IMG/VR virus record: IMGVR_UViG_3300020183_000075 | Coordinates: 1-62,906 of that record | Length of the DNA stretch: 62,906 nucleotides | DNA from: a virus | Lineage: Duplodnaviria > Caudoviricetes | Reading direction: 5' to 3' (one strand) | Translations under genes and position numbers: made by a program | Notes under the pieces: model-generated | Databases searched by the model: none | Told to the model about the DNA's origin: nothing | Seen by the model: the letters and a program-made list of their open reading frames with translations, nothing else | Shown here: in pieces, positions 17,002 through 62,373 of the stretch | Numbering within the stretch: the stretch's first letter is position 1 | Layout: every line of letters begins with the position of its first letter

Positions 17002-17009
17002 TATTTATA
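17002..17009 (-). promoter_or_regulatory. T4 late promoter TATAAATA upstream of gp22
   Basis: Exact consensus in the intergenic gap. Confidence 0.8.
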
Positions 17010-23789: not shown

Positions 23790-23797
23790 TATTTATA
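23790..23797 (-). promoter_or_regulatory. T4 late promoter TATAAATA upstream of gp18
   Basis: Exact consensus in the gp17/gp18 gap. Confidence 0.8.
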
Positions 23798-34398: not shown

Positions 34399-34410
34399 GG
34401 TTATTGATAT

Positions 34411-45479: not shown

Positions 45480-45480
45480 T

Positions 45481-47217
45481 TTATATTCCGTTTACTGTTG
45501 TATTAGCCTTTAATAAAAATTCATTGTTAAAAAGCAAACCGTCTTGGTATTTGGGAACTACAGTTATTGTTGTATATTGTGTTTCTGGTATTATATCAGG
45601 TTTTATAGTAACTATTCCACGTTGATAATCAATATCTCCGAAATTTTTAGTTCCTATTTGTTGAGAGTTAGACACTTTAAATGCGTATAATTTTCCACTA
45701 ATAGAATTACCATTGCTATCGAATTTAGTTGGAATATCTCCTAAAAATGCTGATTCAGAATTATATGTTATATTTGAAGATTTTACTACAGTAAATTTAG
45801 ATCCACTACTTGCCGATGCTAGTTCATTTTTAAATCCTATAATTCTATCTGTAACAGAACCGTATACATCCAAATTCAATGTGATAGAATTTAAATTTAT
45901 ACCAGTTACAGTATAGCTCTGACCAATCAAAACACGAAGATCTCCTAAAAATACTGTATTATTAAATTTATAATTCGTATTATAATAATCATTAATTAAA
46001 TTTTTAATTGCTGTGTTATTTAAATTTGGCCCTAAAACTGTGAGATTTATATTTGCTGTTACTATTTGTGGTTGAGTATACTCTGGTAGTACTGTTATAG
46101 CAGATTTTTTTTTCAAAAATGCAATACAATTTTTTACAGAATACGATCCAGCAGTTAGACCTTCGTTTGCAAAAGACACAAATACTCTGCCCATAGCCGG
46201 AGGATTGGCTTCTTCTCCTCCCCATACGTTTATTTCTTCTTTAGAAGTTATGTCTGAAGGTAATAATCCAGAATTTAATAATAAACCGTAATAATCGTCT
46301 TTAGTTATTGCTCTGTCGTTTGCAGCAAAAAGTTTTGGAGCAGAGAAACGATATAGATCTAAATCTGGAGTACTTCTACCACCATCAGATGGTGTAACAG
46401 CATTTATACTAATTGCTGAAGTAGAACTAAAAGTACTTACTCCATTCGCAGATTCCCCATTAGGAACTAGGTACGAGACTTTAACAGTATCACCTGCTTG
46501 TATATTTTTACCGTAATTATTACCAAAGTCATTTATACTTCTTTTACCAAAAACAATATAAAATCCTGCATTTGTTCTATCTAAGAAATAAACTTTTGCA
46601 TCTGGGCCAACAGTTTGTGTGTTTGGTGCATACGACCAAGTTTCTTCCACACCACCGGAAGTAACTTTAACTTTTATAGTGTTAATATCTAAATTTTTTG
46701 TGGCTATAAATGCTTTTTGTTCGGTAATATTCACACTGACAATTAAATCTTTTACAACACTACTAGCTTCATATACTTTAAATGTTTTATTTTGTGCATC
46801 TAGTTCTACATCTTCTATAGTGTAAAACAGATACACCAATCCATTATCATTAGTTCCTATAAATTGATCGGTGTAAGATGTTATTGTAGAAGTGGTCGTA
46901 GAAGAAGTTCCTGTTATTTCTGCGGTAGAACAAGATCTACTTGGTAATAGAACACCTAAAGGTTTTAATAATGAGACAAAATTATTTTCAACTTGTGCAG
47001 TTTCTAAAAAAGACTCGTTTGCTATCATGTTAGCATAATAGGCATAATATAGAGTATTATAAGCAAATACGTCTAAAAGTAGATTTATAGCAGATCCGTC
47101 GTAATTGTAACTATTTAAATCAGAATTTGGAAGAGCTTTTAAATAACTTTTAAAAGATTCTTTCAGTCCTTCAAAATCCAGAGAAGAAATGTTTATTTGT
47201 GGTGGTGGGTTTGCCAT
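45481..47217 (-). CDS. 6: Baseplate wedge protein (gp6)
   Basis: LDFE.LK, YNYDGSAINLLLDVFAYNTLY, NESFLETAQ, RAITKDDY, VWGGEE..PP..GRVF.S, GDIDY..G. Confidence 0.95.
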   Translation of the reverse strand: MANPPPQINISSLDFEGLKESFKSYLKALPNSDLNSYNYDGSAINLLLDVFAYNTLYYAYYANMIANESFLETAQVENNFVSLLKPLGVLLPSRSCSTAEITGTSSTTTSTITSYTDQFIGTNDNGLVYLFYTIEDVELDAQNKTFKVYEASSVVKDLIVSVNITEQKAFIATKNLDINTIKVKVTSGGVEETWSYAPNTQTVGPDAKVYFLDRTNAGFYIVFGKRSINDFGNNYGKNIQAGDTVKVSYLVPNGESANGVSTFSSTSAISINAVTPSDGGRSTPDLDLYRFSAPKLFAANDRAITKDDYYGLLLNSGLLPSDITSKEEINVWGGEEANPPAMGRVFVSFANEGLTAGSYSVKNCIAFLKKKSAITVLPEYTQPQIVTANINLTVLGPNLNNTAIKNLINDYYNTNYKFNNTVFLGDLRVLIGQSYTVTGINLNSITLNLDVYGSVTDRIIGFKNELASASSGSKFTVVKSSNITYNSESAFLGDIPTKFDSNGNSISGKLYAFKVSNSQQIGTKNFGDIDYQRGIVTIKPDIIPETQYTTITVVPKYQDGLLFNNEFLLKANTTVNGI

Positions 47218-47228
47218 TTATTTTACCT

Positions 47229-47594
47229 TCAGACCGTTAAACTCAAAGATCCTGAAGCAGATTCGTCATTTATCATATGAAATCTTAAATCTACTTGAAA
47301 TCCTTCTTGTAACCTAATAAATTGTATATTATCTATTATTGCTCGTGGTTCTTGTGACTCTAATTGGGCTTTGACTACTTCTTTTAAAACAGCTAATTGC
47401 ACGTCACCTTTATTTGTCTGTAATCCTTCTACCAGATCCGAACCAAAATTTGGCTGAAAAACTCGTTCTCCTTTTCTGGTTAAAGCAATATTACCTAAAC
47501 TTTGGCCTATAGCATAAACATCTTTTTTAAATGATATATCTTGAGTTAATTCATTTTTTGTCAAAAAAAAGTCTATATCTGAATATTTTGCCAT
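47229..47594 (-). CDS. 25: Baseplate wedge/sheath initiator (gp25)
   Basis: YSDID, AI.QSL.NI.LT.KGERVFQPNFGS, EPRA. Confidence 0.92.
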   Translation of the reverse strand: MAKYSDIDFFLTKNELTQDISFKKDVYAIGQSLGNIALTRKGERVFQPNFGSDLVEGLQTNKGDVQLAVLKEVVKAQLESQEPRAIIDNIQFIRLQEGFQVDLRFHMINDESASGSLSLTV

Positions 47595-47601
47595 TTTAAT
47601 G

Positions 47602-47609
47602 TATTTATA
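47602..47609 (-). promoter_or_regulatory. T4 late promoter TATAAATA upstream of gp25
   Basis: Exact consensus, intergenic. Confidence 0.8.
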
Positions 47610-47614
47610 AACGG

Positions 47615-48502
47615 TTATGCGTTTTCTATTACAACCTTTCTATAAGTCTTGGGATCAACTTCAGAACCATCTCTCATCAGATGTAAAAACATTGAATGTT
47701 TAATAGAAGTTATAACTCGTTGTATTTTATAGACCATCCAGCGTCCATCATGTCTAGTTTTTTTAATCTGAGTATTATTCTCCATGTTTACCCCATATTC
47801 TATATTAATCAGATCTCCGGGTTTAATATTAAAATCGCCATGAACCAGAATACGTATTCTGTTATACATCAATAAAGCAGTCTGTGCTCTTCTGTACAGA
47901 GGAGTTTTGGGTGGAGTGTTCCAGAATGTGGCATTTGTTTTAGAATACTCAACATATTTGTCGAATTGACAACCGCAACCGCCCTTACCGTTTCTACAAT
48001 CGCCTGTTGGATACGTTGGTGGAATATAAGAGTCTACTTGTATTTCTGATGGAAGTTTTGCTAATCTTCCGTAATCGGCATTTCCGGACTGTAATCCGTA
48101 ATCGCTTTCTGTGATGTGGCCTTTAGTTGACCACCAAGAAGTATTTGGTATATCGGTTCCGGTAGAACAAAAACAATTATATGCAGCATTAGGATCAGAA
48201 TAATCAATTCCTAACCATTCTATTCCTAATTCTTTTTTAATACTAGCACATTCTGTCGCCAGATTTTTAGCGCATAGTAGTTCATCGTCTGAGGGCTCTG
48301 GTTGTTGAGGCTGTAATTTTGAAAGATGAGGAGGAACATAACTTGGAAAAGGAGGTAGTTCTGAATTTGGTAAAAATATATCAGGATTTAGTGATGGACC
48401 AAATTTACTGTGTTCTCTGGATGATATACTAAATTTATGAGGATAATAACCACTATAATCGTCTGATGAAAAATTTGATGTATTTACTTGGTCTTGACTC
48501 AT
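47615..48502 (-). CDS. Baseplate hub gp27-like, C-terminal part
   Basis: IRILVHGDFNIKPGDLINI...GRWMVYKIQRVI...HSMFLHLMRD matches the last hub beta-barrel pattern. Start set to ATG 48502 (AAGGA RBS). Confidence 0.7.
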   Translation of the reverse strand: MSQDQVNTSNFSSDDYSGYYPHKFSISSREHSKFGPSLNPDIFLPNSELPPFPSYVPPHLSKLQPQQPEPSDDELLCAKNLATECASIKKELGIEWLGIDYSDPNAAYNCFCSTGTDIPNTSWWSTKGHITESDYGLQSGNADYGRLAKLPSEIQVDSYIPPTYPTGDCRNGKGGCGCQFDKYVEYSKTNATFWNTPPKTPLYRRAQTALLMYNRIRILVHGDFNIKPGDLINIEYGVNMENNTQIKKTRHDGRWMVYKIQRVITSIKHSMFLHLMRDGSEVDPKTYRKVVIENA

Positions 48503-48503
48503 G

Positions 48504-50528
48504 TTATTGTTCCTTTGCCACACAAACTCCGGCATTTTCTACGTCAAATATGAACATAGGACCAGTTTCTTGTTTTGGTGGAAATCCGCATGGGAATGAT
48601 GTAGCGGGTATTAAAAGATCTACCATTTTTGAACTTATAACATCTATTTTTACAACACGTCCTACATATTCGTCACGAATTGAACTTTCTTCTGTCCCAG
48701 ATTTAACTCTAAATTGACCAACTGGTTGCATAACAATTCCATCAATAGTTCCTTCGCTTTTAGAAACTTGGCTAGAAGCACCAGGAGATACTAAAGACGT
48801 CTGAAGATCTCTACTTTCTTCTTTATTTGCTGGTAATGTTGTATTTAAAAACTCATTTAAATTATAAGCTCTTCCTTTAATCCCCCATGGAACTGTAACT
48901 ATACTAAACGGATAATCTTTATCTGCTACAACATTTTGAACTGCTCGTTGATTTCTGAATCCTCTTCCTCTGTCTCTTTTATTCCAAAATTCTATTTCTT
49001 TAAAATAATAACTGTAAATACCACCGGCACCATTATCGTATATCTTATCTGCTCTTAGTAATATTGCATAAAAGCTGGTTGGTTGGTTTCGCTCTCCTAA
49101 TATACTTTGACGATAAAATTTCCATTTTGTATCTTGTCTTTTAAGATAAGCGTAATAGGTTCTATTTTTAGACAAAGGCCATTTAATCTTTTCGTATATC
49201 TTCTTTAAACAAGATGCTGGTAGTTCGCAAAAATCAAATTGAGCTTGCCAATAATTTCCTTCGATTCGTTCTACTTCGGAAGTAATACCACCAATTTTTT
49301 CACCTTCAAAGTGTTTGTATGAAGAATCCCAGTAGTTCCACCACGGTCTGTTAGATTGGCCATAAGCGTCCTGAAAATATCCGTAATATGAATCTGATAT
49401 TCTGTTTGGTGAATATACCAATGAAACATCCCTGACATCTATAGGTGGATAAGAAGATATTTTCTTAAACCCGGTATCTGTGTAATAATCATAAACAACT
49501 TGTGTTCTTTTTAGAGACTCTGATGTATCAACAACAAATTTATACGGATTAATCCAATCAGGTTTAACACGAACATATTCTCCGCTGAAAGCACCATTAT
49601 TAACAAGTTTTGCTACAGGAGTTTCTGTTATTATTTGAAGGTCCACTATTGCATTAATATCATTCTCGTTTAAAGAAGGAACATATGTGGCTTTAATAGG
49701 CTTTTCCAACAAAGATTCCACACATTTAAAATTAAATTTATCTAGATCTTCCCAGAAGAAAAAATTTACCGCATTTGGATTTTTAGAATAACAAGCGTAT
49801 TCACAAACATAGTTCATCATTTGGCCGATTTTTGCAGGAACACCAATTTTACTCCAAGGATAATGACTGGGATTCAATTTAAACCAAACATCATTAAATG
49901 TTGCGTCTGCATCTAGTTGCTTGGGAGCATCTTCTCCTTGATTCGAACCAAATCCAAACTCTTGAAATACGTATTGAACAAAACCGGGACCATTTATAGA
50001 GCCACACTTTTCTAAATTTGGTACTTGAGAAGTATAAGATGATGCCGAATTAGATCCAGAACTACTAGATATTCTTCCTATAAAAGACTTCAACAACATG
50101 GTATCAAAGTTTTTATAGATTAATTGATCTGAAGTAAACTTTATAGCGACAGGAATAGTGTTACCGAATGGACCTAAAATTTGTTTGGAAACACTGTTAG
50201 CTTCAGATACGATTTCTACTATTTTGAAACGACAAGTTTTAGTTGCTCCTTGAGCTGTATATTTTATCTGTACTATATCGTATGATGTAAAATTTAGTTG
50301 TTCTACTATGAAAGCAGGATCAAAGAAATATAGAGTTCCCGAGACAGACTCTGCAAACATGTCTTCATCTAAAATTAAAGAATCAAAAATTATAGGTTCG
50401 TTAGCATCTCTAGGAAAAACCGTAAAAGCAACAAACTGTGATGCAGTATTGGGATCATTGTTAATAAGAGTTATCTCTTGTATTTCAATGTTCGGTATAC
50501 TTATTTGGTCATTAGGAAGAATACTCAT
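48504..50528 (-). CDS. Baseplate hub gp27-like, N-terminal part with C-terminal extension
   Basis: LILDEDMFAESVSGTLYFFD and FFFWEDLDKFNFKCVESLL hub motifs; follows gp53. Confidence 0.7.
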   Translation of the reverse strand: MSILPNDQISIPNIEIQEITLINNDPNTASQFVAFTVFPRDANEPIIFDSLILDEDMFAESVSGTLYFFDPAFIVEQLNFTSYDIVQIKYTAQGATKTCRFKIVEIVSEANSVSKQILGPFGNTIPVAIKFTSDQLIYKNFDTMLLKSFIGRISSSSGSNSASSYTSQVPNLEKCGSINGPGFVQYVFQEFGFGSNQGEDAPKQLDADATFNDVWFKLNPSHYPWSKIGVPAKIGQMMNYVCEYACYSKNPNAVNFFFWEDLDKFNFKCVESLLEKPIKATYVPSLNENDINAIVDLQIITETPVAKLVNNGAFSGEYVRVKPDWINPYKFVVDTSESLKRTQVVYDYYTDTGFKKISSYPPIDVRDVSLVYSPNRISDSYYGYFQDAYGQSNRPWWNYWDSSYKHFEGEKIGGITSEVERIEGNYWQAQFDFCELPASCLKKIYEKIKWPLSKNRTYYAYLKRQDTKWKFYRQSILGERNQPTSFYAILLRADKIYDNGAGGIYSYYFKEIEFWNKRDRGRGFRNQRAVQNVVADKDYPFSIVTVPWGIKGRAYNLNEFLNTTLPANKEESRDLQTSLVSPGASSQVSKSEGTIDGIVMQPVGQFRVKSGTEESSIRDEYVGRVVKIDVISSKMVDLLIPATSFPCGFPPKQETGPMFIFDVENAGVCVAKEQ

Positions 50529-53500
50529 AGATCAGTTATCCTGATATCAATCTTGTTTTCTGTTTGTACTAAATTCTTAAATTGTTTTTCAAATTCGTAT
50601 AGTTTATTATTATTTAAGTATTTAATTTCTGTTACTTGTATTTGTGCTTGTTGTTGTTTGTATGGTGTTATTAGTAGATCGTTACCACTTGCAGTTTGAT
50701 ATGCGTTTATAAATGCAGTTTTCCAGACAGAACCATTATTTGCGGTAGGATCTTGTATATTACCAGCGCCGTCAACAATATATTGAACACTATTCATATA
50801 TGAATCTACACTTAGAAGTTTATGTTGAATATTTTTTATAATACTACCATCTCTGATTACAGATACATTAGTTCCGGATGGATCGGTTAATTGTATTGGA
50901 GATTCATTTGGTGCAGAATAACTTTTTACATAAATTCTTTTAAATATATCATCGACCCTATCCACTCGACCCAGATACTTTTTATTTTCTCCGGTCTCGA
51001 ATAATACTAGATGATTTCCGCCCGATTCTACAGTATCAAACATTCCTTCTATGGAAGTAAGGTTTACCGTCAAAGTAGAACCAGAACAACCACCAGAATC
51101 TGTAATAATTTTTCCTGCCGTAAATAATTTTCCTGTTGTGTCTATAGCTGCAGAGTGTGCATCACCCGCAGAAATATCAATATAAGTTCCTGCTGGTATA
51201 TTTTGTTTATTATCTAGAGTAGAGCCTAAGAAATAAACAGTTCCTAATTTATCCAATAAAATACTATGATCTTTTCCTGATTTAATCTTTGTTATATTTT
51301 TAATGTCATAGAAATTAAATTCTGTTTTAACTTCTGTTATAAGATTGTTAAAATAATTTAATAAACTAATTAATTTAGTAGTATTGGGTTTAGAGGAATT
51401 AAATACAGAATAGTCTTCATTTATTAATTCTGTTTGCAATACAGACCAATCTATAGCAGTAAAACCAATATCTGCATTTTTATTATTCCAATAATATGTA
51501 CCTCCTAATATTCCATAATAATACCACTGATCTAGCGCTTTTCTTTCAAAAGTATTTCCTAAAATAGCCAGAATACTATTATCAAAAATTGAAATATTAT
51601 TTATAGATGTATTATAATTATTTTCTGATGTTTTTGATTCATCTATTGAATTTTTAAATATTTGATTATATACTAGAATTCCTGTTGCACCTTGTACTAA
51701 AACTGGACCTTTAGTTACAACATCATATGTAAATCCGACATTAATATCAAAATTATGACTAAAATTACTAAGTATTACTTTATTGATATTTTTTCCAGTA
51801 ATATTTTCGTAATCTTTTAATATTTTTTTATTATTTTTCCATATTATTGGTGTATTTGATATTTCTTCTGGTAGTATAAATTTACTAATATTATTATCTA
51901 CGATAAAATCATAATTCACATCTTGTAAAAACTGCTTCCAGCGATCATAATATTTTGTATAAACAGCAGAAGTGATTCCTATAGAATTTAAATAATAATT
52001 TTTAGATGCGAGTTCTTCTGAATAAGGTTTATATTCACGATAAGATATATCAAAACCATTTATTGGTAAGTAAGAATTTACTCCTTGTGTAATATAAGGA
52101 GTCCAAGATTCATCTTTACTATATTCTCGATAATTAATTAAAGTATTTCCAGTTTGCCAACTTAATTTGTGTGTAAATGTATAACCACCAAATGCTCCAC
52201 TAAATCCTATATTTGTATAATTTGGTAAAAGCGATCCGACATTAAAACCAACAGCAATAGATTCTTTATTTCCTGTTAAATCAAATATTGCCTGTTTTGC
52301 TAAAGTATAGCCTAAATTATAAAAGTTTTTTATGTAATATAGTGTAGTATTAAAATCATCATCCGTCACCGGAGCAGAATAAAAATTATAAGATAAAACA
52401 TTTTGATATGTTACTCCGTCTCCAGCTAAAGATAACCCTGATGAATTTAACGTATAACCCAAATATTTAATATTTGCAGGTTCATTAAACCAGCGTAAAC
52501 TGTTTTGATCATTATCACTGATATTTAATATTAATTTTTTTGGATATTCTCCTATTTGATTGTAATATTCTTGTATTTTTGTTTTTAAATGGTCTTTAAA
52601 TAAGCTTTCACCCCAATTACCATCAAAAGTGTAGCCTATTAAATTATCTTTATATTTTTTATTTTTAGGTAGTCTATTAGTTATAGATAAAGGTTTTAAA
52701 TAATCAAATAATTGATTTTGATCTAATCCATTTACATCTTCTGTATTGCCCCAATAAACTACATCTCCGTTATTTTTAACTGCACCAGAACAAGTAGGTG
52801 TTGCAAAAATTGAAGATACTTCTGTTAAATCAGGAGGTACGGAACACTGACCGTGAGTATTGTCACCAAAACAATATACATTTCCACTATTAGTTAGAAT
52901 AACAACATGATCTCCACCACTAACAGCTTGTTTCCAGTCAATATCAAATGGAGTTTGCATTGGTAATTGTTTGACTCTGCCCCAAACATCAAAATAACCA
53001 TCAGCAAAGATGACACCAAAATTATTAACTCCACAAAGAACCTTAATTATAGGTTCTATTTTAGTGTTAATTCTGTCCCATGTAGCCTGAGACATGTATT
53101 GTTTATCAGTTTCAACACCTAAAATTTCTATTGTGTTATTTTTTCTTGCAGCAATAACAGCATCAAACCCAGCAGCTATATCAGTTACTCTTGTATAACT
53201 TCCAGTTTCGTCTCGTGATAATCTTCCTAAAACCGTATCACTATATTTACCTGGGCCCATTGGAATATGATCTACATTTTTAGTTGTATCTTTTCTTAAT
53301 AAAAATAGATCTCTCCAACCAGCAGATATCTTTTCTACTACTGAATTTGGTTGTTTATACTCATTTGGTATTTTTGTAGAAATATCAAAATAGACAGGAC
53401 TATTTGGTGTTATGGGTGTATCAAAAGGATTAAACCCCCATAGTCTAGTTTCATACTGACCGGTAAAATTTTCTATTCCTCCAGAGCAATTTGCTTTTGC

Positions 53501-54700
53501 TGAAATAGAATCATTAGAATATGAATAAGAAGAATCTATGGGAAGTGGTAAAGACGAATCAATTATAGTACCATTTCCTAATTGACCATTAAAATTTCTT
53601 CCCCAACTATAAAGCTCATTAACTCCAGGAACTATTTCTTTTAATCCTAAACAGTGAGATCTACCACAAGATATTGATTTCCAATTATTATCAGAACTAA
53701 CTTTATTTAAAAATGGTTGAATTGAAGCATTATAAATTCTACCATTTGGTCCTTCTATTCTAGTGCCATTACCGTAGATGCCTGAAAAATTGTCCCCCCA
53801 AGCATATAAATGGCCTCCAGATATACCAAGACAAGATATTTCGCTAGCAGATATTGAAGACCAGGAATTGGGTCCAGGTATTGGTGTATAAGTATTATAC
53901 AATTTTCCAAAAGAAACTGAATCAGAATCCGTAATTAAGTTTTCTGTCATGTGCGAGAGAAAAATTAGTTCAGTAGACTGTGTTAATCCTTCATTTCCTC
54001 TGCCTAAAACTCCTGCTGTATTTGGCCCCCACGAATATAAATAACCATTTCTTATACCCAACGCGTAATTTTTTCCTGCACTTATGTGTGACCAACCATT
54101 TAAATTGTGAACTCTTTTTGGATTAATAAAGATACCCATATTTCCACTAAAAGGTCCTTGGAGATTACAGGCTTCTGTTACTCTGTCTCCATCAATAAGC
54201 AAACGACCTACTACACATCCCCACGCATAAAGAAATCCGTTTCTAATACCATAAGAAAAGAGATCTCCAGCTTCTACTTTTTCCCAACCAGTAAGACCTC
54301 CAACTTTAGTGGGAATATGTGTATAATCTAAACTTCCATATAATGTATTCCCTATAAAATTTACATTAGTTTTAAACTGATTATATTCGCTGTCAGAAGA
54401 AAAAAGATCATTTAAAAAATCTGATCTTCTTTTAGAAATCGCCGTCAAGCCTAATTGACCAGTTTCATTACTACCCCATGCATACAAGTTATCACCACAT
54501 ATTCCTAAAGAATGATTAATACCAGCAGAAATCTCAGTCCAATTTCCACTATTTGAAATTAATTTAGGAGTCGATTTAAACTGTACACTTGTAGTAATAC
54601 CCAATTGACCCCAATCATTTTTACCCCAAGAATATAAATTTCCATTATTTATTAATAATCCGTGGTTTTGTCCAATAGAAATTTTATATACGTTATTCAT
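50525..54700 (-). CDS. RCC1/BLIP-II repeat protein ending in a gp53-like C-terminus
   Basis: Many ISAG.NHSLG...LYAWG.N..GQLG repeats; C-terminal EIKYLNNNKLYEFEKQFKNLV. Confidence 0.75.
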   Translation of the reverse strand: MNNVYKISIGQNHGLLINNGNLYSWGKNDWGQLGITTSVQFKSTPKLISNSGNWTEISAGINHSLGICGDNLYAWGSNETGQLGLTAISKRRSDFLNDLFSSDSEYNQFKTNVNFIGNTLYGSLDYTHIPTKVGGLTGWEKVEAGDLFSYGIRNGFLYAWGCVVGRLLIDGDRVTEACNLQGPFSGNMGIFINPKRVHNLNGWSHISAGKNYALGIRNGYLYSWGPNTAGVLGRGNEGLTQSTELIFLSHMTENLITDSDSVSFGKLYNTYTPIPGPNSWSSISASEISCLGISGGHLYAWGDNFSGIYGNGTRIEGPNGRIYNASIQPFLNKVSSDNNWKSISCGRSHCLGLKEIVPGVNELYSWGRNFNGQLGNGTIIDSSLPLPIDSSYSYSNDSISAKANCSGGIENFTGQYETRLWGFNPFDTPITPNSPVYFDISTKIPNEYKQPNSVVEKISAGWRDLFLLRKDTTKNVDHIPMGPGKYSDTVLGRLSRDETGSYTRVTDIAAGFDAVIAARKNNTIEILGVETDKQYMSQATWDRINTKIEPIIKVLCGVNNFGVIFADGYFDVWGRVKQLPMQTPFDIDWKQAVSGGDHVVILTNSGNVYCFGDNTHGQCSVPPDLTEVSSIFATPTCSGAVKNNGDVVYWGNTEDVNGLDQNQLFDYLKPLSITNRLPKNKKYKDNLIGYTFDGNWGESLFKDHLKTKIQEYYNQIGEYPKKLILNISDNDQNSLRWFNEPANIKYLGYTLNSSGLSLAGDGVTYQNVLSYNFYSAPVTDDDFNTTLYYIKNFYNLGYTLAKQAIFDLTGNKESIAVGFNVGSLLPNYTNIGFSGAFGGYTFTHKLSWQTGNTLINYREYSKDESWTPYITQGVNSYLPINGFDISYREYKPYSEELASKNYYLNSIGITSAVYTKYYDRWKQFLQDVNYDFIVDNNISKFILPEEISNTPIIWKNNKKILKDYENITGKNINKVILSNFSHNFDINVGFTYDVVTKGPVLVQGATGILVYNQIFKNSIDESKTSENNYNTSINNISIFDNSILAILGNTFERKALDQWYYYGILGGTYYWNNKNADIGFTAIDWSVLQTELINEDYSVFNSSKPNTTKLISLLNYFNNLITEVKTEFNFYDIKNITKIKSGKDHSILLDKLGTVYFLGSTLDNKQNIPAGTYIDISAGDAHSAAIDTTGKLFTAGKIITDSGGCSGSTLTVNLTSIEGMFDTVESGGNHLVLFETGENKKYLGRVDRVDDIFKRIYVKSYSAPNESPIQLTDPSGTNVSVIRDGSIIKNIQHKLLSVDSYMNSVQYIVDGAGNIQDPTANNGSVWKTAFINAYQTASGNDLLITPYKQQQAQIQVTEIKYLNNNKLYEFEKQFKNLVQTENKIDIRITDL

Positions 54701-54704
54701 GTTT

Positions 54705-57700
54705 TTATGTTTCTAAAATTACTGTAGTTGGTATAGAAGATCCCAAAATATTTATTGTTCCGCTACCAGTAGTACCAGATCCCCATAAAAATAATCTACC
54801 GTCTTGTTTTAACAAGGCAGTAAAATATTGACCACAATCGATTATCTTATTTGCACTTCCATCATTCACTTCAGCCGGAACACTACATTGCGCATAATCA
54901 TTATTTCCCCAACAAATAATATTACCATTTATATCTTCTGCACAATTATGATCATAACCCACAGACAGTTTGTTTGCTATTCCTAAAGTCGAAGGAACAT
55001 CAAAAATTTTATAAACACCATTTTCATTCGTTGTAGTTATTTGAGGCATTCCCCAACACTCTACTAATCCATTTTCTTTTATTCCACAACAATGGGTATA
55101 AAAACAATCTATAAAACTATAGGTCAATCCTGGTGGCGAAGTCAATGAGCCATCTAATCCCCAGATTTTTAGTGATCCTTCGCTTGTCACCGGTATACCA
55201 TATGCCATAGCACCACCTACGGCACCATCACCTATAAAATCATTATATGAGAATGGTTCCGAACTAAAGCTAGAGGTAATAAAATTATTAAATTTAGTCG
55301 TATTATATGGGACTTTATCTGCATTTATAAGGGTTATTTTTTTATTTTTTTGTAATAAAACCATAAATCCATTACCAAAAATAATATCTTCTATTTCATC
55401 TTTAACTGGGCCCAAAGTTCCAGCATCGAATCTATTAAGGTCTCCAGTTCCTCTTAAAATATATCCTATATTATTTTTTTTACCAGTTTCTTTATTTGCA
55501 GCTAAAAATGAAAATCCATATTTTTCACCAGGAAATACATTTTCTAAAGTTAGACCATTACCGTATAAGAAATCATCTACTGTATAACTACTAGGAATCA
55601 AAGATCTATAATTAAATTCATTGGGTTTAAAAGCCCCATCTATATAGTGTTTAGATTTTCCTCCATAAGAATTAAATTTTTGTATATACACATAATAATC
55701 AAAAAAAGTAAATGGTTGTCCAAAAGTAGAAGACCACGCTAGCAAAGACATATAATCATATGGTGGTGGTATGTGTATATTTAATATAAAGTATGGATAT
55801 AGTATTTGTTTTGTTGTGGAATTATATAAAAGCAGAGCATCTTCAAACCCCGAGTATATTAATGGTTTAAATCCTAATTCAACACCATTTAAAAAGTGTG
55901 CGAATCGATATATCATTGATGGAAAATCTAGAAGAGGAGTAGTATTAGCATGTCCTACTATTTTTATTAAACTATTATCATTTTTTGTAACATATAATTG
56001 ATTACCATTTCCAACTATATCCACAACGCCTGTTTTAATTTTTTCACTAACGTCTGTGCGTTTATCAAGCCTGTATAATAAATTCAATATTTCATTATCA
56101 GTATACTTCTGTGTTGTTTGTTCGTGAGCCCATCCATATAAAGTTATTCCACCGGCGTTTTTAATGAGATTTCCAGCAGTTCCACCTAAATGTGCCCACA
56201 ATACTTCATTACTTTTTGTTAAAACAAAAATTGGAGAGGTTTCATCGGGTTTAAATTGTTTTCCGTCTCCAAACGGATTCAGTGATTGTATAACAGAATA
56301 AGGACCAACTACTTTTGCTGCATTTGAAACAGTAAATCCTGCAAACATATTTTCAAATGTATCAATAGGACCTAAATTTCCAATGAATTCCGTCCAATAA
56401 TTACCATGAATAGACAGTGTATTATTTCCATGAATTGCTACAACATTATCCCAATTAACTGTTATATCAGATGCAGTAATTCCTGGGATAGTGTAATAAT
56501 CTCCAGTAAAACCAAACTTAATATCTGTTATATAAGTTATACCCCATATTTTAATTGTATTATCTTTAGCAAGACCTGCAGCCCAATAAGAATAACCATC
56601 TGCATTTTCTATTTTTATAAAAGAAATTCCGCTGGGAGGATTTACCGCTGCAGGATAAGATTTAACAAAATCAGAAAAAGCATAAAAATCGGCAGCATTT
56701 CCATATATTTCGCTTTCGTTAGGATCGTGGATTCGATATGGAGTTCCGTCTTTTGTGATAACCCAAGCAGATCTTCCAGATTGACTAGATATATATGATA
56801 TACCCTGAGCATTAATCGTGCTTAAAATTCCTGGTAATTCTTTATCATAAGTATAAGTTATTCCATTTATACCAACACAGGTTAAAGTTTGTTGCAATCT
56901 TAATTCGGTGGAAGGATCACCCAGATACTTAAGAACGTCTGTAGTATATTTATTTTGATAATTAATTTCTCTATTACAAGAAAATATGTCTAGTGTATCA
57001 TCTTCTTTTAATAATAAAACTATTTCACCATCTGTAATAATTTGTATATTTTTTATACCTTCTCCATTTTTAAGACGTAAATTATTACTAAATATATCAC
57101 CCAAAGAAGACGATTTAACGATATACGTAACTCCATTTACATTATTTTGAGCCAGTGGTGCAACTGGAGTATTGTACGTAGAATTGGACGTATTTACTTC
57201 AGATTTAAATTGAGGATAAAATGCAGGAACACATGTAACAGCTGGGTTATAAAAATCTACCGGTCCAGTTAAACCTTGTACATATACTGCAGTAAAAACC
57301 ATTTTATTTAATGCAGTTATACCAATATAATTTCTATCAAATAAACCAGCAAATCCCTGACTTATTTTTTTAGGTTTTAATATTTTATTATAATAAAAAG
57401 AGTAATCAAAATTATTGTTAGAAAATTCATCAAATCCATATAAGGCAAATATTTTAGGATTATTTAATATAAATCCTTCTCTACTATTAGAATTATGATC
57501 GGTAAAACCAAATAAAATTCTGTCATCAGAGTTAGAACCAAATATTTTTATATAATTAGATCTATAAACCTCTTCTGGATTTTGTGTTGGTGAAGTAAAA
57601 GGTGGAATATCTTTTATAGAAACTTGTAAGACATTTTTATTATACTGTTTAACTATTTTATTTTGTGTGTCCGTAAATGGATATATCGGATTTGTTTGTG

Positions 57701-58754
57701 GTAGTGCTCCTAGTTTTGTTAATTCTTTAGAATAAAAAGTATTTTGTCTTATCTGTTCAAAATAACCAGTAGAACCAAATCCCACAACAACGCCATTTAC
57801 AGCTCCTGTTGCTGCCCCTAAGCAATAATCGTCAGCACAAGAAACATCAGAAAAATATTGTATTGTTGCATTGGTTGAAACTATAGGTCCAAAAATACTA
57901 ATAGTATTGTCATTTTTAATTCCAATACCGGCAAAAGTTTGGCCACTAGTCCAAGAACTCTTTTTAATATCAGACTGACCGGTGAAAGTAAAATTAGCAC
58001 AATTACCAAAACAAACAAAATCACCAGTAGAAGTAACTGCAATTATTTTATCGTGAGTTGTATCTATATGCTTATATCCTCCACTAGGAGAATTATATAA
58101 TCTACCATTTAAATTAAAACCAGAACTTTCTAATCCTATATCTTCACCCCAAGCCCAAATATAACCTAGATCATCTAAACATGCAGTAAAATTACGACCA
58201 CACGATATTTGAATTATATTATTTCTATTTAAAAAATTATCAGGTATATCTGACTGACCAAAATGTGGATAACCACAGGAATTTAGTGCGGAAACAATAC
58301 CGGCACCATAAGTTTTTAATTCTAATGGTCCTGCTCCGGTTTCAAAAATAATAATATCGTCTTGTTGTATACCAGATAAAGATACACCAGAATAAGAATC
58401 TATTTCGTTAGAATTAAAGTATTCTGAATTTGTTGGAAGATAATTACTATTATTTGCAAATTGAAAAATCTTAGTATCAAAATCTGTAGAATTTTGTGTT
58501 AGTTGCGTTGAGTTTGATCTTGCCCATTCTTTAAATGGATTTTTTATATTATTTAATGCCAGATTAACCCAAAATAATTTAGGATCATTATATAAATTAT
58601 TCGATAGTTGGTCAGGCCTTTCAAAATTAATATTTTTGGTTGTGCTTATATCCGGAGAATTTGTAGTATCTACTTTTATAGATTTAAATATATCGGTTAA
58701 CTCTAAAGTTTGACCATTTAAGTAATAATTAATTTTAGAAAAATTTTCAAACAT
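54705..58754 (-). CDS. 53: Baseplate wedge gp53 N-terminal (LysM-like) domain fused to RCC1-like repeats
   Basis: F.NF.KINY...TDIFK...ERPDQLSNNLYNDPKLFWV.LALNNIKNPFKEW; QISCGRNFTACLD..G.IWAWG and CWGNNDYAQCSVP repeats. Confidence 0.82.
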   Translation of the reverse strand: MFENFSKINYYLNGQTLELTDIFKSIKVDTTNSPDISTTKNINFERPDQLSNNLYNDPKLFWVNLALNNIKNPFKEWARSNSTQLTQNSTDFDTKIFQFANNSNYLPTNSEYFNSNEIDSYSGVSLSGIQQDDIIIFETGAGPLELKTYGAGIVSALNSCGYPHFGQSDIPDNFLNRNNIIQISCGRNFTACLDDLGYIWAWGEDIGLESSGFNLNGRLYNSPSGGYKHIDTTHDKIIAVTSTGDFVCFGNCANFTFTGQSDIKKSSWTSGQTFAGIGIKNDNTISIFGPIVSTNATIQYFSDVSCADDYCLGAATGAVNGVVVGFGSTGYFEQIRQNTFYSKELTKLGALPQTNPIYPFTDTQNKIVKQYNKNVLQVSIKDIPPFTSPTQNPEEVYRSNYIKIFGSNSDDRILFGFTDHNSNSREGFILNNPKIFALYGFDEFSNNNFDYSFYYNKILKPKKISQGFAGLFDRNYIGITALNKMVFTAVYVQGLTGPVDFYNPAVTCVPAFYPQFKSEVNTSNSTYNTPVAPLAQNNVNGVTYIVKSSSLGDIFSNNLRLKNGEGIKNIQIITDGEIVLLLKEDDTLDIFSCNREINYQNKYTTDVLKYLGDPSTELRLQQTLTCVGINGITYTYDKELPGILSTINAQGISYISSQSGRSAWVITKDGTPYRIHDPNESEIYGNAADFYAFSDFVKSYPAAVNPPSGISFIKIENADGYSYWAAGLAKDNTIKIWGITYITDIKFGFTGDYYTIPGITASDITVNWDNVVAIHGNNTLSIHGNYWTEFIGNLGPIDTFENMFAGFTVSNAAKVVGPYSVIQSLNPFGDGKQFKPDETSPIFVLTKSNEVLWAHLGGTAGNLIKNAGGITLYGWAHEQTTQKYTDNEILNLLYRLDKRTDVSEKIKTGVVDIVGNGNQLYVTKNDNSLIKIVGHANTTPLLDFPSMIYRFAHFLNGVELGFKPLIYSGFEDALLLYNSTTKQILYPYFILNIHIPPPYDYMSLLAWSSTFGQPFTFFDYYVYIQKFNSYGGKSKHYIDGAFKPNEFNYRSLIPSSYTVDDFLYGNGLTLENVFPGEKYGFSFLAANKETGKKNNIGYILRGTGDLNRFDAGTLGPVKDEIEDIIFGNGFMVLLQKNKKITLINADKVPYNTTKFNNFITSSFSSEPFSYNDFIGDGAVGGAMAYGIPVTSEGSLKIWGLDGSLTSPPGLTYSFIDCFYTHCCGIKENGLVECWGMPQITTTNENGVYKIFDVPSTLGIANKLSVGYDHNCAEDINGNIICWGNNDYAQCSVPAEVNDGSANKIIDCGQYFTALLKQDGRLFLWGSGTTGSGTINILGSSIPTTVILET

Positions 58755-58757
58755 ATA

Positions 58758-59174
58758 TTAAAATGGATTTATAGGATTTATAGGGGCAGTACTGTTAAAA
58801 AACACATTTAAAGAAGAATTGAGTTGATTTATTTTTTCATTGGCAAATGTCAATCCTAGTGTATTTGTATAATATAATGATCTAAAATAATTAATTGTGT
58901 TAGGATTTAATTCAGGTAGATTGTTATTATTAAAATAATTATAATTAAATGAAGTTACTCCCAAATAATTATAACCAGGTCCTGTTGGTCCAAAAAATAA
59001 ATTTACATAATCTAAAACTATTTGCTTTGTTAAACTGATCTGACCAGGTGCTAATGCATTTTTTTGAATTTTTTGACGAAAATAATCGTTGAATTCTTGA
59101 AAATATTTTTTAGAAATAAAATCTGAAGTATTTGAAGAAAGTAAAGGATTTATTATTGGTAAATATGTGTTCAT
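58758..59174 (-). CDS. Asn-rich hypothetical protein, probably virion-associated
   Basis: Lies between gp48 and gp53; 3 of its 5 Gly are in G-x-T. Confidence 0.55.
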   Translation of the reverse strand: MNTYLPIINPLLSSNTSDFISKKYFQEFNDYFRQKIQKNALAPGQISLTKQIVLDYVNLFFGPTGPGYNYLGVTSFNYNYFNNNNLPELNPNTINYFRSLYYTNTLGLTFANEKINQLNSSLNVFFNSTAPINPINPF

Positions 59175-59200
59175 GTTTATTGTATATATTATTGATATTA

Positions 59201-59908
59201 TTATCCAGCAAAAGTTTGAGCACGATTTACCAGACCGGCAGCAGTATTTACTGCTGGTTCTAGTTCCACAAACGATAGATTTATATTTACAGCAAGAGGA
59301 TGATTGTTAGGCAGATTAAACGGGGTGTCTAATATGGGATTTTTGTTGATGTCTACGTGAGTAAGCACACTAGGTAATCCAACAGGATCCCAACCACTAA
59401 CAGAACCGGTACTTAAAACCCAAAGAGGAGGATGCTTCCAGATAAGACGGTTTCCTCCATCCCAGCTGGAAAAAGCGTACGTTTGAAAAGTATCTGCTAT
59501 TTCTTTTGCCCTGACTGCTTGATCTGGTGTTTTTGCCATCAGATCCATACTAACAATATACTTTCTACGAGCACCGGGAGACAGTACCGATTCCATGTTA
59601 TCGTATGTAAAACTGCTTCCACCTTTCATAAAGTAGCTGTAGATCATGTTGCCTTCAAACGTTAGATTGTCCATAGCCACTCTAAGGTTATCTAACGGGC
59701 TGTTGGCTATAGTTCCGCTGTTTGTATACGGTACATCATTAGCAACATTCATCAGTTTAGGATACGGAACAGTTATAGTATTACCTTTACTAATAACTGC
59801 GGTTCTGGTTCGATCTTTGTTGTAACGGCTATAATCACCCCAATGAAATGTTAAAAACACGGGTATTTCATTAGCCATCTGGTCGCCGGGAAATGATAGT
59901 GTTGCCAT
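59201..59908 (-). CDS. 48: Baseplate tail-tube cap (gp48-like)
   Basis: LSFP, I.VP.P, E.......RKY....DLMAKT..QA, HPP.W, P.VLT.V, L.LSFVELE; divergent from gp4. Confidence 0.75.
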   Translation of the reverse strand: MATLSFPGDQMANEIPVFLTFHWGDYSRYNKDRTRTAVISKGNTITVPYPKLMNVANDVPYTNSGTIANSPLDNLRVAMDNLTFEGNMIYSYFMKGGSSFTYDNMESVLSPGARRKYIVSMDLMAKTPDQAVRAKEIADTFQTYAFSSWDGGNRLIWKHPPLWVLSTGSVSGWDPVGLPSVLTHVDINKNPILDTPFNLPNNHPLAVNINLSFVELEPAVNTAAGLVNRAQTFAG

Positions 59909-59938
59909 TTTTGTTTCCAACATATATATTTAAGTTTA

Positions 59939-60385
59939 ATGGCGTACAAAACTAAATATATTCCAGAATTCACCCATAAATACGTAGGTAACGTAGATAA
60001 TATTATTTGCAGATCAAACTGGGAAAGAAAATTTTGTAAATATCTGGATAAAAACGAATCAGTAATACGCTGGTCTAGCGAAGAGTTAAAAATTCCATAT
60101 TATTCCACAATAGATCATCAAGTGCATCATTATTATCCAGATTTCGTATTTGAAGCCAAAAAAGAAGACACAGTACAAACATACATTGTGGAAATTAAAC
60201 CTAAAAAACAAACAGTAAAACCTAAAACACGAAAAAATAAAAGAGCTTACTTGAACGAATGTATAACTTACGAAACAAACATCTGTAAATGGAAAGCCGC
60301 AACAGACTACTGCAAAAAACAAGGATGGATATTTAAAATATTAACAGAGGAAGATATTTTCAAGGGCCAAAAAAGTGGCAAATAA
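59939..60385 (+). CDS. 4: Head completion nuclease (gp4, TnsA-like)
   Basis: AYK.KY.P....KYVG, RSNWERKFCKYLD, WSSEE, YYPDF, EIKPKKQT, KWKAA, FKILTE. Confidence 0.95.
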   Translation: MAYKTKYIPEFTHKYVGNVDNIICRSNWERKFCKYLDKNESVIRWSSEELKIPYYSTIDHQVHHYYPDFVFEAKKEDTVQTYIVEIKPKKQTVKPKTRKNKRAYLNECITYETNICKWKAATDYCKKQGWIFKILTEEDIFKGQKSGK

Positions 60386-60899
60386 AACTAATACCATCAC
60401 AGATATAACCAACTATTTTACTCAAGGATTTCAAAGAAACAACCGCTTTGAAGTGTCTTTCTCCAGACAAAACGTTTCTTTCTGGGCGTCTCAGTGCCAG
60501 ATTCCTCAACAATACGTAACCTGGTATCCTGAAACGTTTTCGCCGTCAGGACCGATGATTCATATTCCTATAAAAAGAGAATACGACGAACGATTTTTAA
60601 TCGATTTTATAGTGGAATCTGATTGGAGAGTAAGAAAGTATTTTGAATCTTGGTATGATGGTATGTTTTCTTCGGTTATAAACGGAAGATCTAATACTGT
60701 AGCAGCCAGAAATACACCAGAAAATCTGTCAACTATAACAGTTAAAGCCATAAATTTAAACGGAAACACCAACGCAACCATAGAAATATATGAAGCGTAT
60801 CCTAAACTACTGTTACCGTCTCAGTTTGCAGATGACTTAACAAATCAATATGTCACACTGACTGTAGACTTTAACTATAGATATTATAGATTAACCTGA
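60375..60899 (+). CDS. 54: Baseplate tail-tube initiator (gp54-like)
   Basis: GFQRNNRFEV, IP, RKYFESW.D, YEAYP, LTVDFNYRYY tube-fold motifs. Confidence 0.8.
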   Translation: MANKTNTITDITNYFTQGFQRNNRFEVSFSRQNVSFWASQCQIPQQYVTWYPETFSPSGPMIHIPIKREYDERFLIDFIVESDWRVRKYFESWYDGMFSSVINGRSNTVAARNTPENLSTITVKAINLNGNTNATIEIYEAYPKLLLPSQFADDLTNQYVTLTVDFNYRYYRLT

Positions 60900-60900
60900 T

Positions 60901-61812
60901 ATGCCTTTAAAAGATTTACTATTATCCAGCTTGCCTCAATACTGTGAAACTCTTCCGTCCGGAAAGCGTGTATGTTTCAGGCCAATGGTTGTGTCTGAAG
61001 AGAAAGCTTTAATTCTTGCAAAGAATACTAGTGATCGTTTAGGTATTTTAAAAACTTTAGAAAATATAATTTTAGAATGCTGTCAGGACCTAAAGAAGTC
61101 TGATTTTAAAAAGTTAAAACTGGCGGATCTAGAGTATCTGTTTTTATTGTTACGAGCCAAGTCTATAGGAGAGGTAGAAGGATTTACTTTAAAGTGTCCA
61201 GACACGGATGAAAGCGTTTCTTTGAAAGTTAATATCATTAAAGACGCGGTATTTAATTTATCAACCGCGAACAACAAAATAAAACTTTCTGAAAATTTGT
61301 TGATAGTATTATCTGAGCCCACTGTTGAACATCTTTTAAATTGTCCCGAATACGATCAAACAGAAGAAGGATTTTATCAATTTATAGGATCTTGCATAAA
61401 ACAAATACAATCTAGAAATGAAATCAAAGAAGGAAAAGAACTACCGGCTGATGAAGTGGTAGATTTCATAAAGGTATTTACTGGCAATCAGATGAAATCT
61501 GTATTAAATTATTTTGATAATATAACTAAAACAGAAATATCAAAAGACTATACAACTTCAGATGGAACAAACAGAAATATAAAAATAAAAGGCCTTTTTA
61601 ACTACATAAATTTTTTTTTTGAACATCTGAACGTAGAAAATTTATATAAACAATTATTTCAATTAAAATATTATCACGACTACGAACTGTCTGAAATAGA
61701 AAAAATGATTCCTTGGGAAAAAACTATTTTTATAGAACAAATCAAAGAACATTTAAACGAAGAAAGAAAGATAAAATACAGCAGCACGGAGGGAATGATT
61801 AATGCAAGATAA
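60901..61812 (+). CDS. 26: Baseplate hub assembly protein gp26 fused in frame to a gp51-like domain
   Basis: LPSGKRV.FRP.VV.EEKAL, DLEYLFLLLRAKSIGE, I.GL..F, then LFQLKYYHDYELSEIEKMIPWEK. Confidence 0.85.
   Translation: MPLKDLLLSSLPQYCETLPSGKRVCFRPMVVSEEKALILAKNTSDRLGILKTLENIILECCQDLKKSDFKKLKLADLEYLFLLLRAKSIGEVEGFTLKCPDTDESVSLKVNIIKDAVFNLSTANNKIKLSENLLIVLSEPTVEHLLNCPEYDQTEEGFYQFIGSCIKQIQSRNEIKEGKELPADEVVDFIKVFTGNQMKSVLNYFDNITKTEISKDYTTSDGTNRNIKIKGLFNYINFFFEHLNVENLYKQLFQLKYYHDYELSEIEKMIPWEKTIFIEQIKEHLNEERKIKYSSTEGMINAR
61611..61620 (+). repeat. T10 homopolymer at the gp26/gp51 junction (candidate slippery site)
   Basis: ATA AAT TTT TTT TTT GAA. Confidence 0.7.
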
Positions 61813-62344: not shown

Positions 62345-62372
62345 AGAAAAGGCCCCTTGCGGGGCCTTTTTT
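62344..62372. terminator. Bidirectional Rho-independent terminator
   Basis: AAAAGGCCCC-TTGC-GGGGCCTTTT between convergent genes, with T runs on both strands and a GCAA loop on the minus strand. Confidence 0.92.
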
Positions 62373-62373
62373 A

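Follow-up and report, generated by a model that had tools for sequence, protein, structure and literature searches.

The locus described here raises the question of how a gene for gp53, a protein of the inner baseplate wedge in T4-like phages, can take the form of two giant open reading frames (ORFs) that carry RCC1-like repeats. The DNA is the uncultured virus record IMGVR_UViG_3300020183_000075 of IMG/VR (positions 1–62,906); this whole stretch of 62,906 nucleotides (nt) is called the window. It comes from an uncultured T4-like phage and covers the structural gene module, with genes for the major head protein, portal, sheath, terminase, gp6, gp25 and a tail fibre; within this module ORF1 and ORF2 together encode about 2,740 residues. 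With a probability of roughly 0.6, we read the locus as the gene of a much enlarged, two-chain version of gp53, in which cargo is nested in a propeller, the two chains are predicted to reassemble and the cargo would bind a receptor. An earlier note, made from the letters of this DNA, had proposed that insertions of RCC1-like repeats were nested in gp53 and had turned it into a two-chain assembly. The two ORFs and their parts are as follows, with lengths in amino acids (aa).

54705–58754, minus strand: ORF1, 1349 aa
58335..58754, minus strand: ORF1 1–140, N-terminal part of gp53 (N-part; LysM-like domain, helix and strands to DDIIIFE), from PF11246, T4 gp53 entries in PDB and hhalign
57765..58334, minus strand: ORF1 141–330, N-terminal blades of the 'host' RCC1-like propeller, from identity to relatives, RCC1_2 and WD40_RLD
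55203..57764, minus strand: ORF1 331–1184, cargo segment U1, mostly hypervariable, no family match
54708..55202, minus strand: ORF1 1185–1349, RCC1 blades up to the stop codon (RCC1_2, E 4.9e-15, three stretches)
54701..54707, minus strand: junction read from the sequence, with the stop codon TAA (54705–54707), then AAAC, then the ORF2 start codon ATG (54698–54700)
50525–54700, minus strand: ORF2, 1391 aa
53381..54700, minus strand: ORF2 1–440, RCC1 propeller region of six to seven repeats (WD40_RLD, E 3.6e-43; RCC1, E 2.1e-40, five stretches)
52724..53380, minus strand: ORF2 441–659, more RCC1 blades (WD40_RLD, E 5e-20)
51296..52723, minus strand: ORF2 660–1135, cargo segment U2, conserved, no Pfam or PHROG match
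50990..51295, minus strand: ORF2 1136–1237, C-terminal blades of the host propeller, up to and including HLVLFETG, from identity to relatives
50528..50989, minus strand: ORF2 1238–1391, conserved C-terminal domain (C-domain) predicted to complete the gp53-like module, from family conservation and the co-fold

In 200 mononucleotide shuffles of positions 50525–58754 the longest stop-free run was 149 codons, so the 1349 and 1391 open codons of ORF1 and ORF2 lie far beyond chance.

The 1349-aa ORF starts as the LysM-like domain of gp53, as the earlier note had it. Residues 2–84 were aligned with positions 3–93 (of 200) of the Pfam family Phage_gp53 (PF11246) at E 3.6e-8 and 33.8 bits, against a cut-off of 21, and this was the single PF11246 match in the whole contig. 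The N-part also matched PHROG 232 (E 2.4e-11) and the T4 gp53 structures 5hx2_F (E 5.1e-5) and 9f4a_AL (E 2.1e-5). A profile of the N-parts of the family was aligned by hhalign with positions 7–108 of a cyanophage gp53 profile (probability 98.9, E 2.7e-17). BLASTP extended the ORF1 match to residue 142 (S-B68 gp53, residues 7–151 of 212) and aligned the N-part of the relative L008 with residues 2–163 of the 207 of Klebsiella phage Metamorpho gp53. The position of the gene, adjoining a gp48-like tube-cap gene in the baseplate module, is that of gp53; in Pelagibacter phage Mosig the order is T4_tail_cap, gp53, hypothetical genes and gp5_OB. Compared with T4 gp53 (PF11246; PDB entries 5IV5 and 5HX2, chain F), the N-terminal ~140 residues are homologous and the gene position is comparable, but a single chain of 196 aa there stands against ~2,740 aa in two chains here. 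Canonical gp53 is a small single polypeptide of ~180–230 aa (180 aa in Mosig, 212 aa in S-B68 and 207 aa in Metamorpho), which the two ORFs of 1349 and 1391 aa are not.

Single-gene relatives and the insertion site

Residues 1–330 of ORF1 map to residues 1–338, and residues 1136–1391 of ORF2 to residues 351–606, of the 606-aa relatives P0003 and L007 (BLASTP; 48 and 47% identity, respectively). Seven loci (L007, which is the same contig as L015, and L008, L009, L010, L016, L018 and L019) have one ORF of 599–617 aa that matches both the N-part and the C-domain profiles. Because these single-ORF relatives match both ends, ORF1 and ORF2 are halves of one ancestral gene; descent from one gene is shown by these alignments, and the uninterrupted relatives that the earlier note had envisaged do exist. 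In the single-ORF relatives (P0003, P0005 and P0007–P0009 as well as the seven loci) the N-part, the host propeller, the C-domain and the neighbouring genes are like those of the window; unlike the window, they have a single chain, no nested cargo and no 138-aa ORF upstream. PF11246 was found at the N-terminus of ten of the 13 family proteins scanned, always within profile positions 2–102 of 200; the match of P0011 lies below the curated cut-off (17 versus 21 bits). The two-ORF form is present in the window, in L004 (1313 + 1390 aa) and in L005 (1357 + 1400 aa), and L003 and L006 are truncated copies of this long form. The material that is extra relative to the ancestor is ORF1 331–1349 plus ORF2 1–1135, about 2,154 aa or 6.5 kb.

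An AlphaFold2 model of P0003 was built on an 18-row alignment (predicted local distance difference test, pLDDT, 79.1; predicted template modelling score, pTM, 0.72). Residues ~136–455 of the model form a closed RCC1-like propeller of seven blades, and when the whole 606-aa model was compared with PDB and BFVD the match lists were filled by propellers. Relative to T4-like gp53 (207 aa), the propeller stands after the strand that aligns with residue ~163, and it appears to have been inserted after the gp53 strand ending in IIxE. The cargo of the window separates two blades of this propeller, with '...GFGSTGYF' on one side and 'ITKIKSGKDH...' on the other in the family alignment (ORF1 ~330 and ORF2 ~1136). 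The nesting proposed in the earlier note is thus borne out for the cargo, but the step from a ~200-aa gp53 is indirect and runs via the 599–617-aa propeller form.

The sequence FETG, which the same note had taken as a possible mark of the insertion boundaries, occurs once per ORF (ORF1 137 and ORF2 1234). The N-side copy is part of the strand at which the alignment with canonical gp53 ends, the one on the C side is an ordinary G-x-x-H-x-x-L-x-x-x-G blade motif, and the extra cargo enters elsewhere, so this suggestion was given up. In the family alignment, relatives have FEKG, VETG, YETG, FEIG or VEDG on the N side and LETG, QGSG, QKSG, KETG or KNSG on the C side, which rules out an insertion or recombination scar and leaves a strand motif instead. 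Both FETG-equivalent strand pairs flank the propeller in the P0003 model (E134–150 and E436–450) and, as modelled, may close it together.

Other members of the family carry other inserts. P0002 and P0004 have a different insert of ~300 aa at the inter-blade cargo site of the window. P0014, which is truncated at its N-terminus, has an insert of this kind as well. Two motifs of this insert, TAAH and GDSSSP, show a weak alignment with the regions around the catalytic His and Ser of the trypsin-like protease Der p 3 (7pzo_A, E 0.15), and Pfam Trypsin was matched at E 0.044; the insert could be a protease that gp53 displays. P0006 (1014 aa) has an extra RCC1 block of ~395 aa at a second site, after residue ~118–129 (ORF1 1–118 maps to P0006 14–129, and ORF1 109–313 to P0006 525–727). 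Since this block is placed after the LysM-like part, the gp53-propeller family has more than one insertion site, and since the inserts differ by member and by site the family is a modular carrier.

When a tree was built from the first ~335 residues, with midpoint rooting only, the long forms were grouped in one clade (support 94/90) that is sister to L007, P0003, P0002 and P0004 (99/99), and both groups were nested among ~600-aa forms. The simplest reading is that the giant split form arose from a ~600-aa form. None of the 988 matching records of the isolate-phage collection covers at least 80% of the 617-aa form, and the family appears to be without a cultured member in that collection.

The split and the predicted reassembly of the two chains

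ORF2 begins after a gap of 4 nt, as the earlier note recorded (TAA, AAAC, ATG). In all three two-ORF contigs (the window, L004 and L005) the cut separates the same two residues, and the long-form proteins of these contigs share just 42–52% identity overall. The start of ORF2, MN(N/G)VYK, is conserved across the split contigs; the spacing is TAA + 4 nt in the window and in L004 and TAA + 2 nt in L005. An assembly or sequencing error that interrupts one gene, or pseudogene decay, would suit a gap of merely 4 nt and RCC1 blades that reach the ORF1 stop codon and restart at residue 5 of ORF2. We regard this explanation as extremely improbable, because the same cut is present in three independent contigs, each with TAA, a conserved ATG and a conserved MN/SG-VYK, and both frames remain open far beyond the shuffled runs. 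A conserved split that is real and old is shown by these comparisons.

Programmed frameshifting or stop read-through would yield one chain of 2,740 residues, and the split would then be merely apparent. The adjacency of the ORFs and the +1 frame of ORF2 relative to ORF1 could be taken in this sense, and T4-like phages recode some tail genes. The frame relation is not conserved, however, and a mechanism of frameshifting is argued against by this difference between contigs. No common slippery motif was seen in the three junctions, which were inspected by eye only, and the window encodes no transfer RNA genes and thus no suppressor. A single recoded chain is very unlikely on these grounds, and two separate chains are assumed in what follows.

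ORF1 1–335 and ORF2 1131–1391, the ancestral halves, were co-folded with alignments of seven rows per chain. The interface score ipSAE (interaction prediction score from aligned errors) was 0.81 (0.81, 0.75 and 0.84 in the individual runs), whereas the best of three controls reached 0.00; the runs had at least 82% of contacts in common, with a partner pLDDT of at least 77. The mark used for ipSAE is reached by 116 of 157 solved complexes and by two of 215 mismatched pairs, a calibration that holds roughly here as our own alignments were used. In the predicted interface ORF1 128–190 and 302–323 meet the blades of ORF2, and the C-domain wraps the gp53 N-part (ORF1 24–112). Strand pairing is predicted between ORF1 97–99 and ORF2 1254–1256 and 1294–1298, and between ORF1 131–135 and ORF2 1246 and 1280–1282, so that the C-domain would share sheets with ORF1 95–99 and 131–135. 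The model supports a predicted reassembly of the two chains into one module and, together with the single-ORF relatives, backs the two-chain assembly of the earlier note as a prediction.

The C-domain is a family trait. When the last 181 residues of ORF2 were searched against 1.84 billion representative proteins, 17 matches were obtained at E ≤ 0.001 and 13 at E ≤ 1e-10; they sit at the C-termini of the relatives, most of which have 606–655 aa.

A number of results weigh against the reading given at the outset, beginning with this domain. The 1391-aa ORF is RCC1-like up to HLVLFETG, as the earlier note described, but the 'gp53-like C-terminus' that it placed after this point was recognised by neither profile, sequence nor fold searches. 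PF11246 and PHROG 232 did not match the C-terminal 230 aa at E ≤ 10, where the Pfam and PHROG searches returned RCC1 plus two chance-level PHROGs only. Nothing was obtained by tblastn with the C-terminal 181 aa against 50,697 phage records, and nothing credible in PDB with the C-terminus as a single sequence (best E 0.12) or as a nine-row profile (0.64). Fold searches recognised no gp53 in the C-domain. A single BLASTP comparison with S-B68 gp53 residues 124–193 gave a weak match (E 0.016). With hhalign, the nine-row C-domain profile reached only P 0.13 against a 33-row cyanophage gp53 profile; a 20-row profile gave a weak signal (P 0.016; 0.0079 for its C-half only), with 0.43 for the reversed control. 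This alignment covers gp53 positions 119–197 and is colinear with the N-part. Positions 119–151 are claimed by the N-part and C-domain alignments alike, so one of the two has to be wrong at least in part. With an estimated completeness of 35%, the contig leaves room for an ordinary second gp53 elsewhere in the genome. The co-fold may partly reflect the knowledge that the model has of intact RCC1 propellers, and its alignments included halves of single-chain relatives. T4 gp53 lies deep around the hub, where room for ~300 kDa per copy is not obvious, and searches of the window's cargo detected neither a carbohydrate-binding nor an enzyme family.

The earlier note had staked its reading on gp53 similarity at the ORF2 C-terminus, and no significant similarity was found there: any homology of the C-domain to the canonical gp53 C-terminus is putative at most, with weak colinear hhalign signals as its sign. 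At most the last 45–60 residues of canonical gp53 could match the terminal helices of the C-domain, and the strand-rich remainder of ~80–100 aa would be additional; in comparison with T4 gp53, a domain of ~155 aa is present here that is not detectably like the gp53 C-terminus. What keeps the C-terminus in the gp53 module are the single-ORF relatives and the co-fold with its shared sheets, not a likeness to T4 gp53. The lack of detectable gp53 likeness would also suit an arrangement in which ORF1 is a gp53 with a C-terminal extension and ORF2 is a separate fibre- or spike-like protein docking elsewhere, with no joint module. Isolated C-domain fragments do occur in databases (P0010, 154 aa; P0012, 208 aa), but they are probably partial gene calls. 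At seven loci the same N-part and C-domain are held in one chain, the cut lies inside a propeller that can be closed from neither chain alone, and strands of the N-part and C-domain are interleaved in the co-fold (0.81 against 0.00). Two unconnected proteins are improbable in view of these points, and one module built from two chains is preferred.

Nested cargo and its possible role

The RCC1-like repeats that the earlier note had described in both ORFs were found with the RCC1, RCC1_2 and WD40_RLD profiles. For ORF2 the E values were 2.2e-63 (WD40_RLD), 4.9e-43 (RCC1) and 2.3e-28 (RCC1_2), and for ORF1 1.4e-15 (RCC1_2); all 12 RCC1_2 matches in the contig fall within the two ORFs. The blades, whose number that note had left to be counted, gave at least 16 profile matches across both ORFs (six in ORF1 and ten in ORF2, domain E ≤ 0.01). 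In ORF1 the hidden Markov model matches stand at 180, 277 and 302 (host propeller) and at 1215, 1262 and 1305 (C-terminal end). In ORF2 they stand at 5, 54, 139, 203, 290 and 340 within residues 1–440, then at 589 and 640, and at 1136 and 1173 (host propeller). With its six to seven repeats, ORF2 1–440 is probably a complete second propeller, judging from the profile matches. ORF2 441–659 contributes two to five blades, and ORF1 1121–1325 resembles ORF2 455–651 (BLASTP, E 1e-6).

The two segments between these blades are of a different kind. U1, searched as three overlapping pieces, gave no Pfam and no credible PHROG match at E ≤ 1; it contains one blade-like match (722–738), and its language-model features resemble those of RCC1_2 clusters (0.92; 141–145 of 256 features in common), which is a lead only. 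For U2 there was likewise no Pfam and no credible PHROG match at E ≤ 1, nor any Pfam match with four copies, and no relative at E ≤ 0.01 among 7,999 candidates of 261–833 aa; its feature-atlas score (0.78) is below use. Weak profile matches of U2 in PDB were to nanobodies and legume lectins (E 0.07–0.4), and its VGFSAA...SWS stretch is similar to a legume-lectin region (5eyx_A, E 0.12, weak). The motifs WFNEP and FILPxE are kept in three of three full copies of U2. WFNEP may resemble the acid/base motif that glycosidases of clan GH-A carry. These motifs and matches are unproven leads to a domain in U2 that binds or cleaves sugars.

The earlier note had called the inserts G-x-T-rich and very AT-rich. 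Their G+C content is indeed low (0.245 and 0.296); the enrichment in G-x-T is clear for U2 (12 seen versus 2.1 expected) and merely mild for U1 (12 versus 5.3). The G+C content at third codon positions (GC3) is uniformly 0.11–0.19 across all segments of ORF1 and ORF2, that of gp6 is 0.147, and the gp53 N-part (G+C 0.252) is AT-rich like U2. The uniform GC3 rules out foreign DNA as the source of the AT-rich inserts and, with the equally AT-rich N-part, indicates that AT-richness reflects amino-acid composition.

Conservation differs strongly along the chains. Identity to L004 and L005 is 52–88% for ORF1 1–350 and 49–84% for ORF2 601–1391, but 8–46% (per 50 aa) for ORF1 501–1200 and 20–48% for ORF2 101–550; for ORF2 1–440 it is 20–58%, and for U2 50–72%. 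The most deeply nested cargo is therefore hypervariable, and the anchoring scaffold, including U2, is conserved. Host-recognition proteins usually combine a conserved anchor with a distal core that is hypervariable, and the pattern seen here fits a role of the cargo in host recognition. A search for the C-terminal 231 aa of ORF1 in viral contigs gave no relative, in a search that is insensitive, since L004 and L005 have one.

As a side observation, a search with the ORF2 N-terminal profile found a 1291-aa ORF, open at the contig end, in L014:1-3876. Its RCC1 repeats are 45% identical to the start of ORF2, and its neighbour on the opposite strand is an ORF of 1846 aa; giant structural proteins of phages seem to exchange RCC1 blocks.

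For T4, PMC3004832 describes gp53 as the penultimate wedge subunit, present in six copies, upon the binding of which the wedges join, and places it around the hub together with gp6 and gp25. In related machines, LysM-like domains hold baseplate and trunk together (PMC12546770 and PMC10966104). Baseplate-displayed propellers of phiKZ, at the ends of its fibres, are proposed as host binders in PMC13250141, and propellers form a platform in the phi11 receptor-binding protein (PMC4901313).

The working that we propose is as follows. The ancestral gp53 would have had a seven-blade propeller between the N-part and a C-domain of ~155 residues, within one ORF of ~600 aa. An inter-blade loop would have taken up the ~2,154 residues, with at least one full RCC1 propeller, further blades, U1 and U2, and the gene would have been cut inside the cargo to give two translationally adjacent ORFs. 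The gp53 N-part and the opening blades would come from ORF1, the closing blades and the C-domain from ORF2, and the chains would rejoin by completing the common propeller and by interleaving strands of the N-part and C-domain. The ORF1 N-part and the ORF2 C-domain would together be the baseplate anchor, from which the common propeller would project. If T4 is a guide, each baseplate would have six copies, placed beside gp6, gp25 and the hub, and the nested cargo would extend outward or downward as far as the host surface. We infer, by analogy with the propellers of other phages, that the cargo module would bind host surface structures, most likely glycans.

The same two-chain assembly could instead display a glycan-degrading enzyme, a shield or spacer, or a decoration that binds particles or mucus, in place of a receptor binder. 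The ~300-aa inserts with protease-like motifs at the cargo site of P0002, P0004 and P0014 (weak, E 0.15) point in this direction, as do the WFNEP motif of the U2 copies and the conservation of U2 without hypervariability. Against it, no enzyme family was detected in the window cargo, the innermost cargo is hypervariable, which is the pattern usual for host-range determinants, and the phiKZ propellers are proposed as host binders in PMC13250141. We consider such a non-receptor role rather unlikely and retain receptor binding as the preferred function of the cargo.

RCC1-like and BLIP-II propellers differ from the present one in that here the propeller is an insert in a baseplate protein, has inter-blade inserts and is divided over two polypeptides; nothing here suggests nucleotide-exchange or beta-lactamase-inhibitor activity. 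The C-terminal propeller of phiKZ gp131 and the phi11 platform belong to peripheral fibre or receptor-binding proteins and are single-chain and not nested, whereas here the carrier is the inner wedge protein gp53. The propellers of the platform in Staphylococcus aureus phage phi11 reportedly have five blades. The 'gp53' of phage XM1 (PMC10457771) is a capsid protein and not the baseplate gp53, and in PMC10218006 the name stands in locus tags of other proteins. No published description of an RCC1 propeller in gp53 was found in the literature searched. The parts themselves (gp53, RCC1-like propellers and domain insertion in tail proteins) were already known; new are the propeller within gp53, the common inter-blade hot spot for cargo and the conserved natural split of a propeller.

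A further-reaching idea, which we hold tentatively and at less than even odds, is that the gp53 propeller is a general docking socket for cargo, with loop inserts that differ by lineage (protease-like ~300 aa or 6.5 kb of nested propellers), and that two chains of ~150 kDa snap together by blade complementation and strand exchange. If so, a very large and fast-evolving adhesin would hang on the most conserved core of the contraction trigger, and receptor binding might couple directly to the gp6/gp25/gp53 ring, bypassing peripheral fibres. gp53, which has been treated as a small invariant part of the baseplate core, can carry a propeller and here has nearly 300 kDa extra per copy. Should the cargo bind the host, this would bear on the trigger of sheath contraction in the numerous marine and freshwater T4-like phages without the fibre set of T4. 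A naturally split propeller that is predicted to reassemble offers a test case for protein-fragment complementation, and the common insertion hot spot suggests a site for grafting cargo onto a phage baseplate.

Gene neighbourhood

On the minus strand the order is gp48-like tube cap, 138-aa ORF, ORF1, ORF2, two phrog_350 genes, gp25 and gp6. The features beside ORF1 and ORF2 are as follows.

59201–59923, minus strand: gp48-like tube-cap gene (phrog_230)
58758..59174, minus strand: 138-aa ORF, possible accessory of the long form (homologues only in long-form contigs)
47615–50528, minus strand: 674-aa and 306-aa ORFs (phrog_350, 'tail protein')

Downstream of the phrog_350 genes, gp25 was assigned by PF04965 and gp6 by phrog_219 (E 3e-76); the gp6 of the window has just 26–29% identity to the gp6 of cyanophages, pelagiphages and a Methylophilales phage. 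A megablast search of positions 45000–62906 against isolate phages gave no matches.

The 138-aa ORF has no Pfam or PHROG family match. Its homologues are confined to contigs with the long form (156, 164 and 170 aa in L004, L005 and L006, respectively), with FGP(T/S)GPGYNY invariant; in L007–L010 no ORF of at least 150 aa stands at this place, and the intergenic gaps are 0–19 nt. It may help in assembly or be an additional subunit.

The 674-aa and 306-aa ORFs match successive parts of phrog_350 (profile positions 173–294 and 337–432 of 436) and may represent another gene that is single elsewhere and double here. Two ORFs at this place were also seen in L008 (805 + 319 aa) and L010 (772 + 309 aa). 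The 32-nt overlap listed for the 306-aa ORF probably vanishes if it starts at the MSQDQ methionine, as in L003. PDB searches with both proteins gave no matches.

Scans of positions 50000–60500 gave 52 sigma-70 promoters versus 64 expected, at or below chance, and four terminators versus 3.9 expected, at chance level. ORF1 and ORF2 are probably co-transcribed with the upstream genes. Copies of the T4 late-promoter-like word TATAAATA are rarer in the window than expected (five seen versus 11.2), and none stands before ORF1 or ORF2. Three of the five copies (17002–17009, 23790–23797 and 47602–47609, minus strand) lie just upstream of minus-strand gene starts, those of a 311-aa ORF, the sheath gene and gp25.

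Two more giant ORFs (1342 and 937 aa; 30370–38318, minus strand) lie downstream of a tail-fibre-like gene of 807 aa; neither has a PHROG match at E ≤ 0.001. The major head protein gene (14517–16007, minus strand) has a G+C content of 0.50 and a GC3 of 0.44, against a window G+C average of 0.35 and a GC3 of 0.11–0.25 in the baseplate genes. It is a strong outlier in composition, perhaps through the codon bias of a very highly expressed gene.

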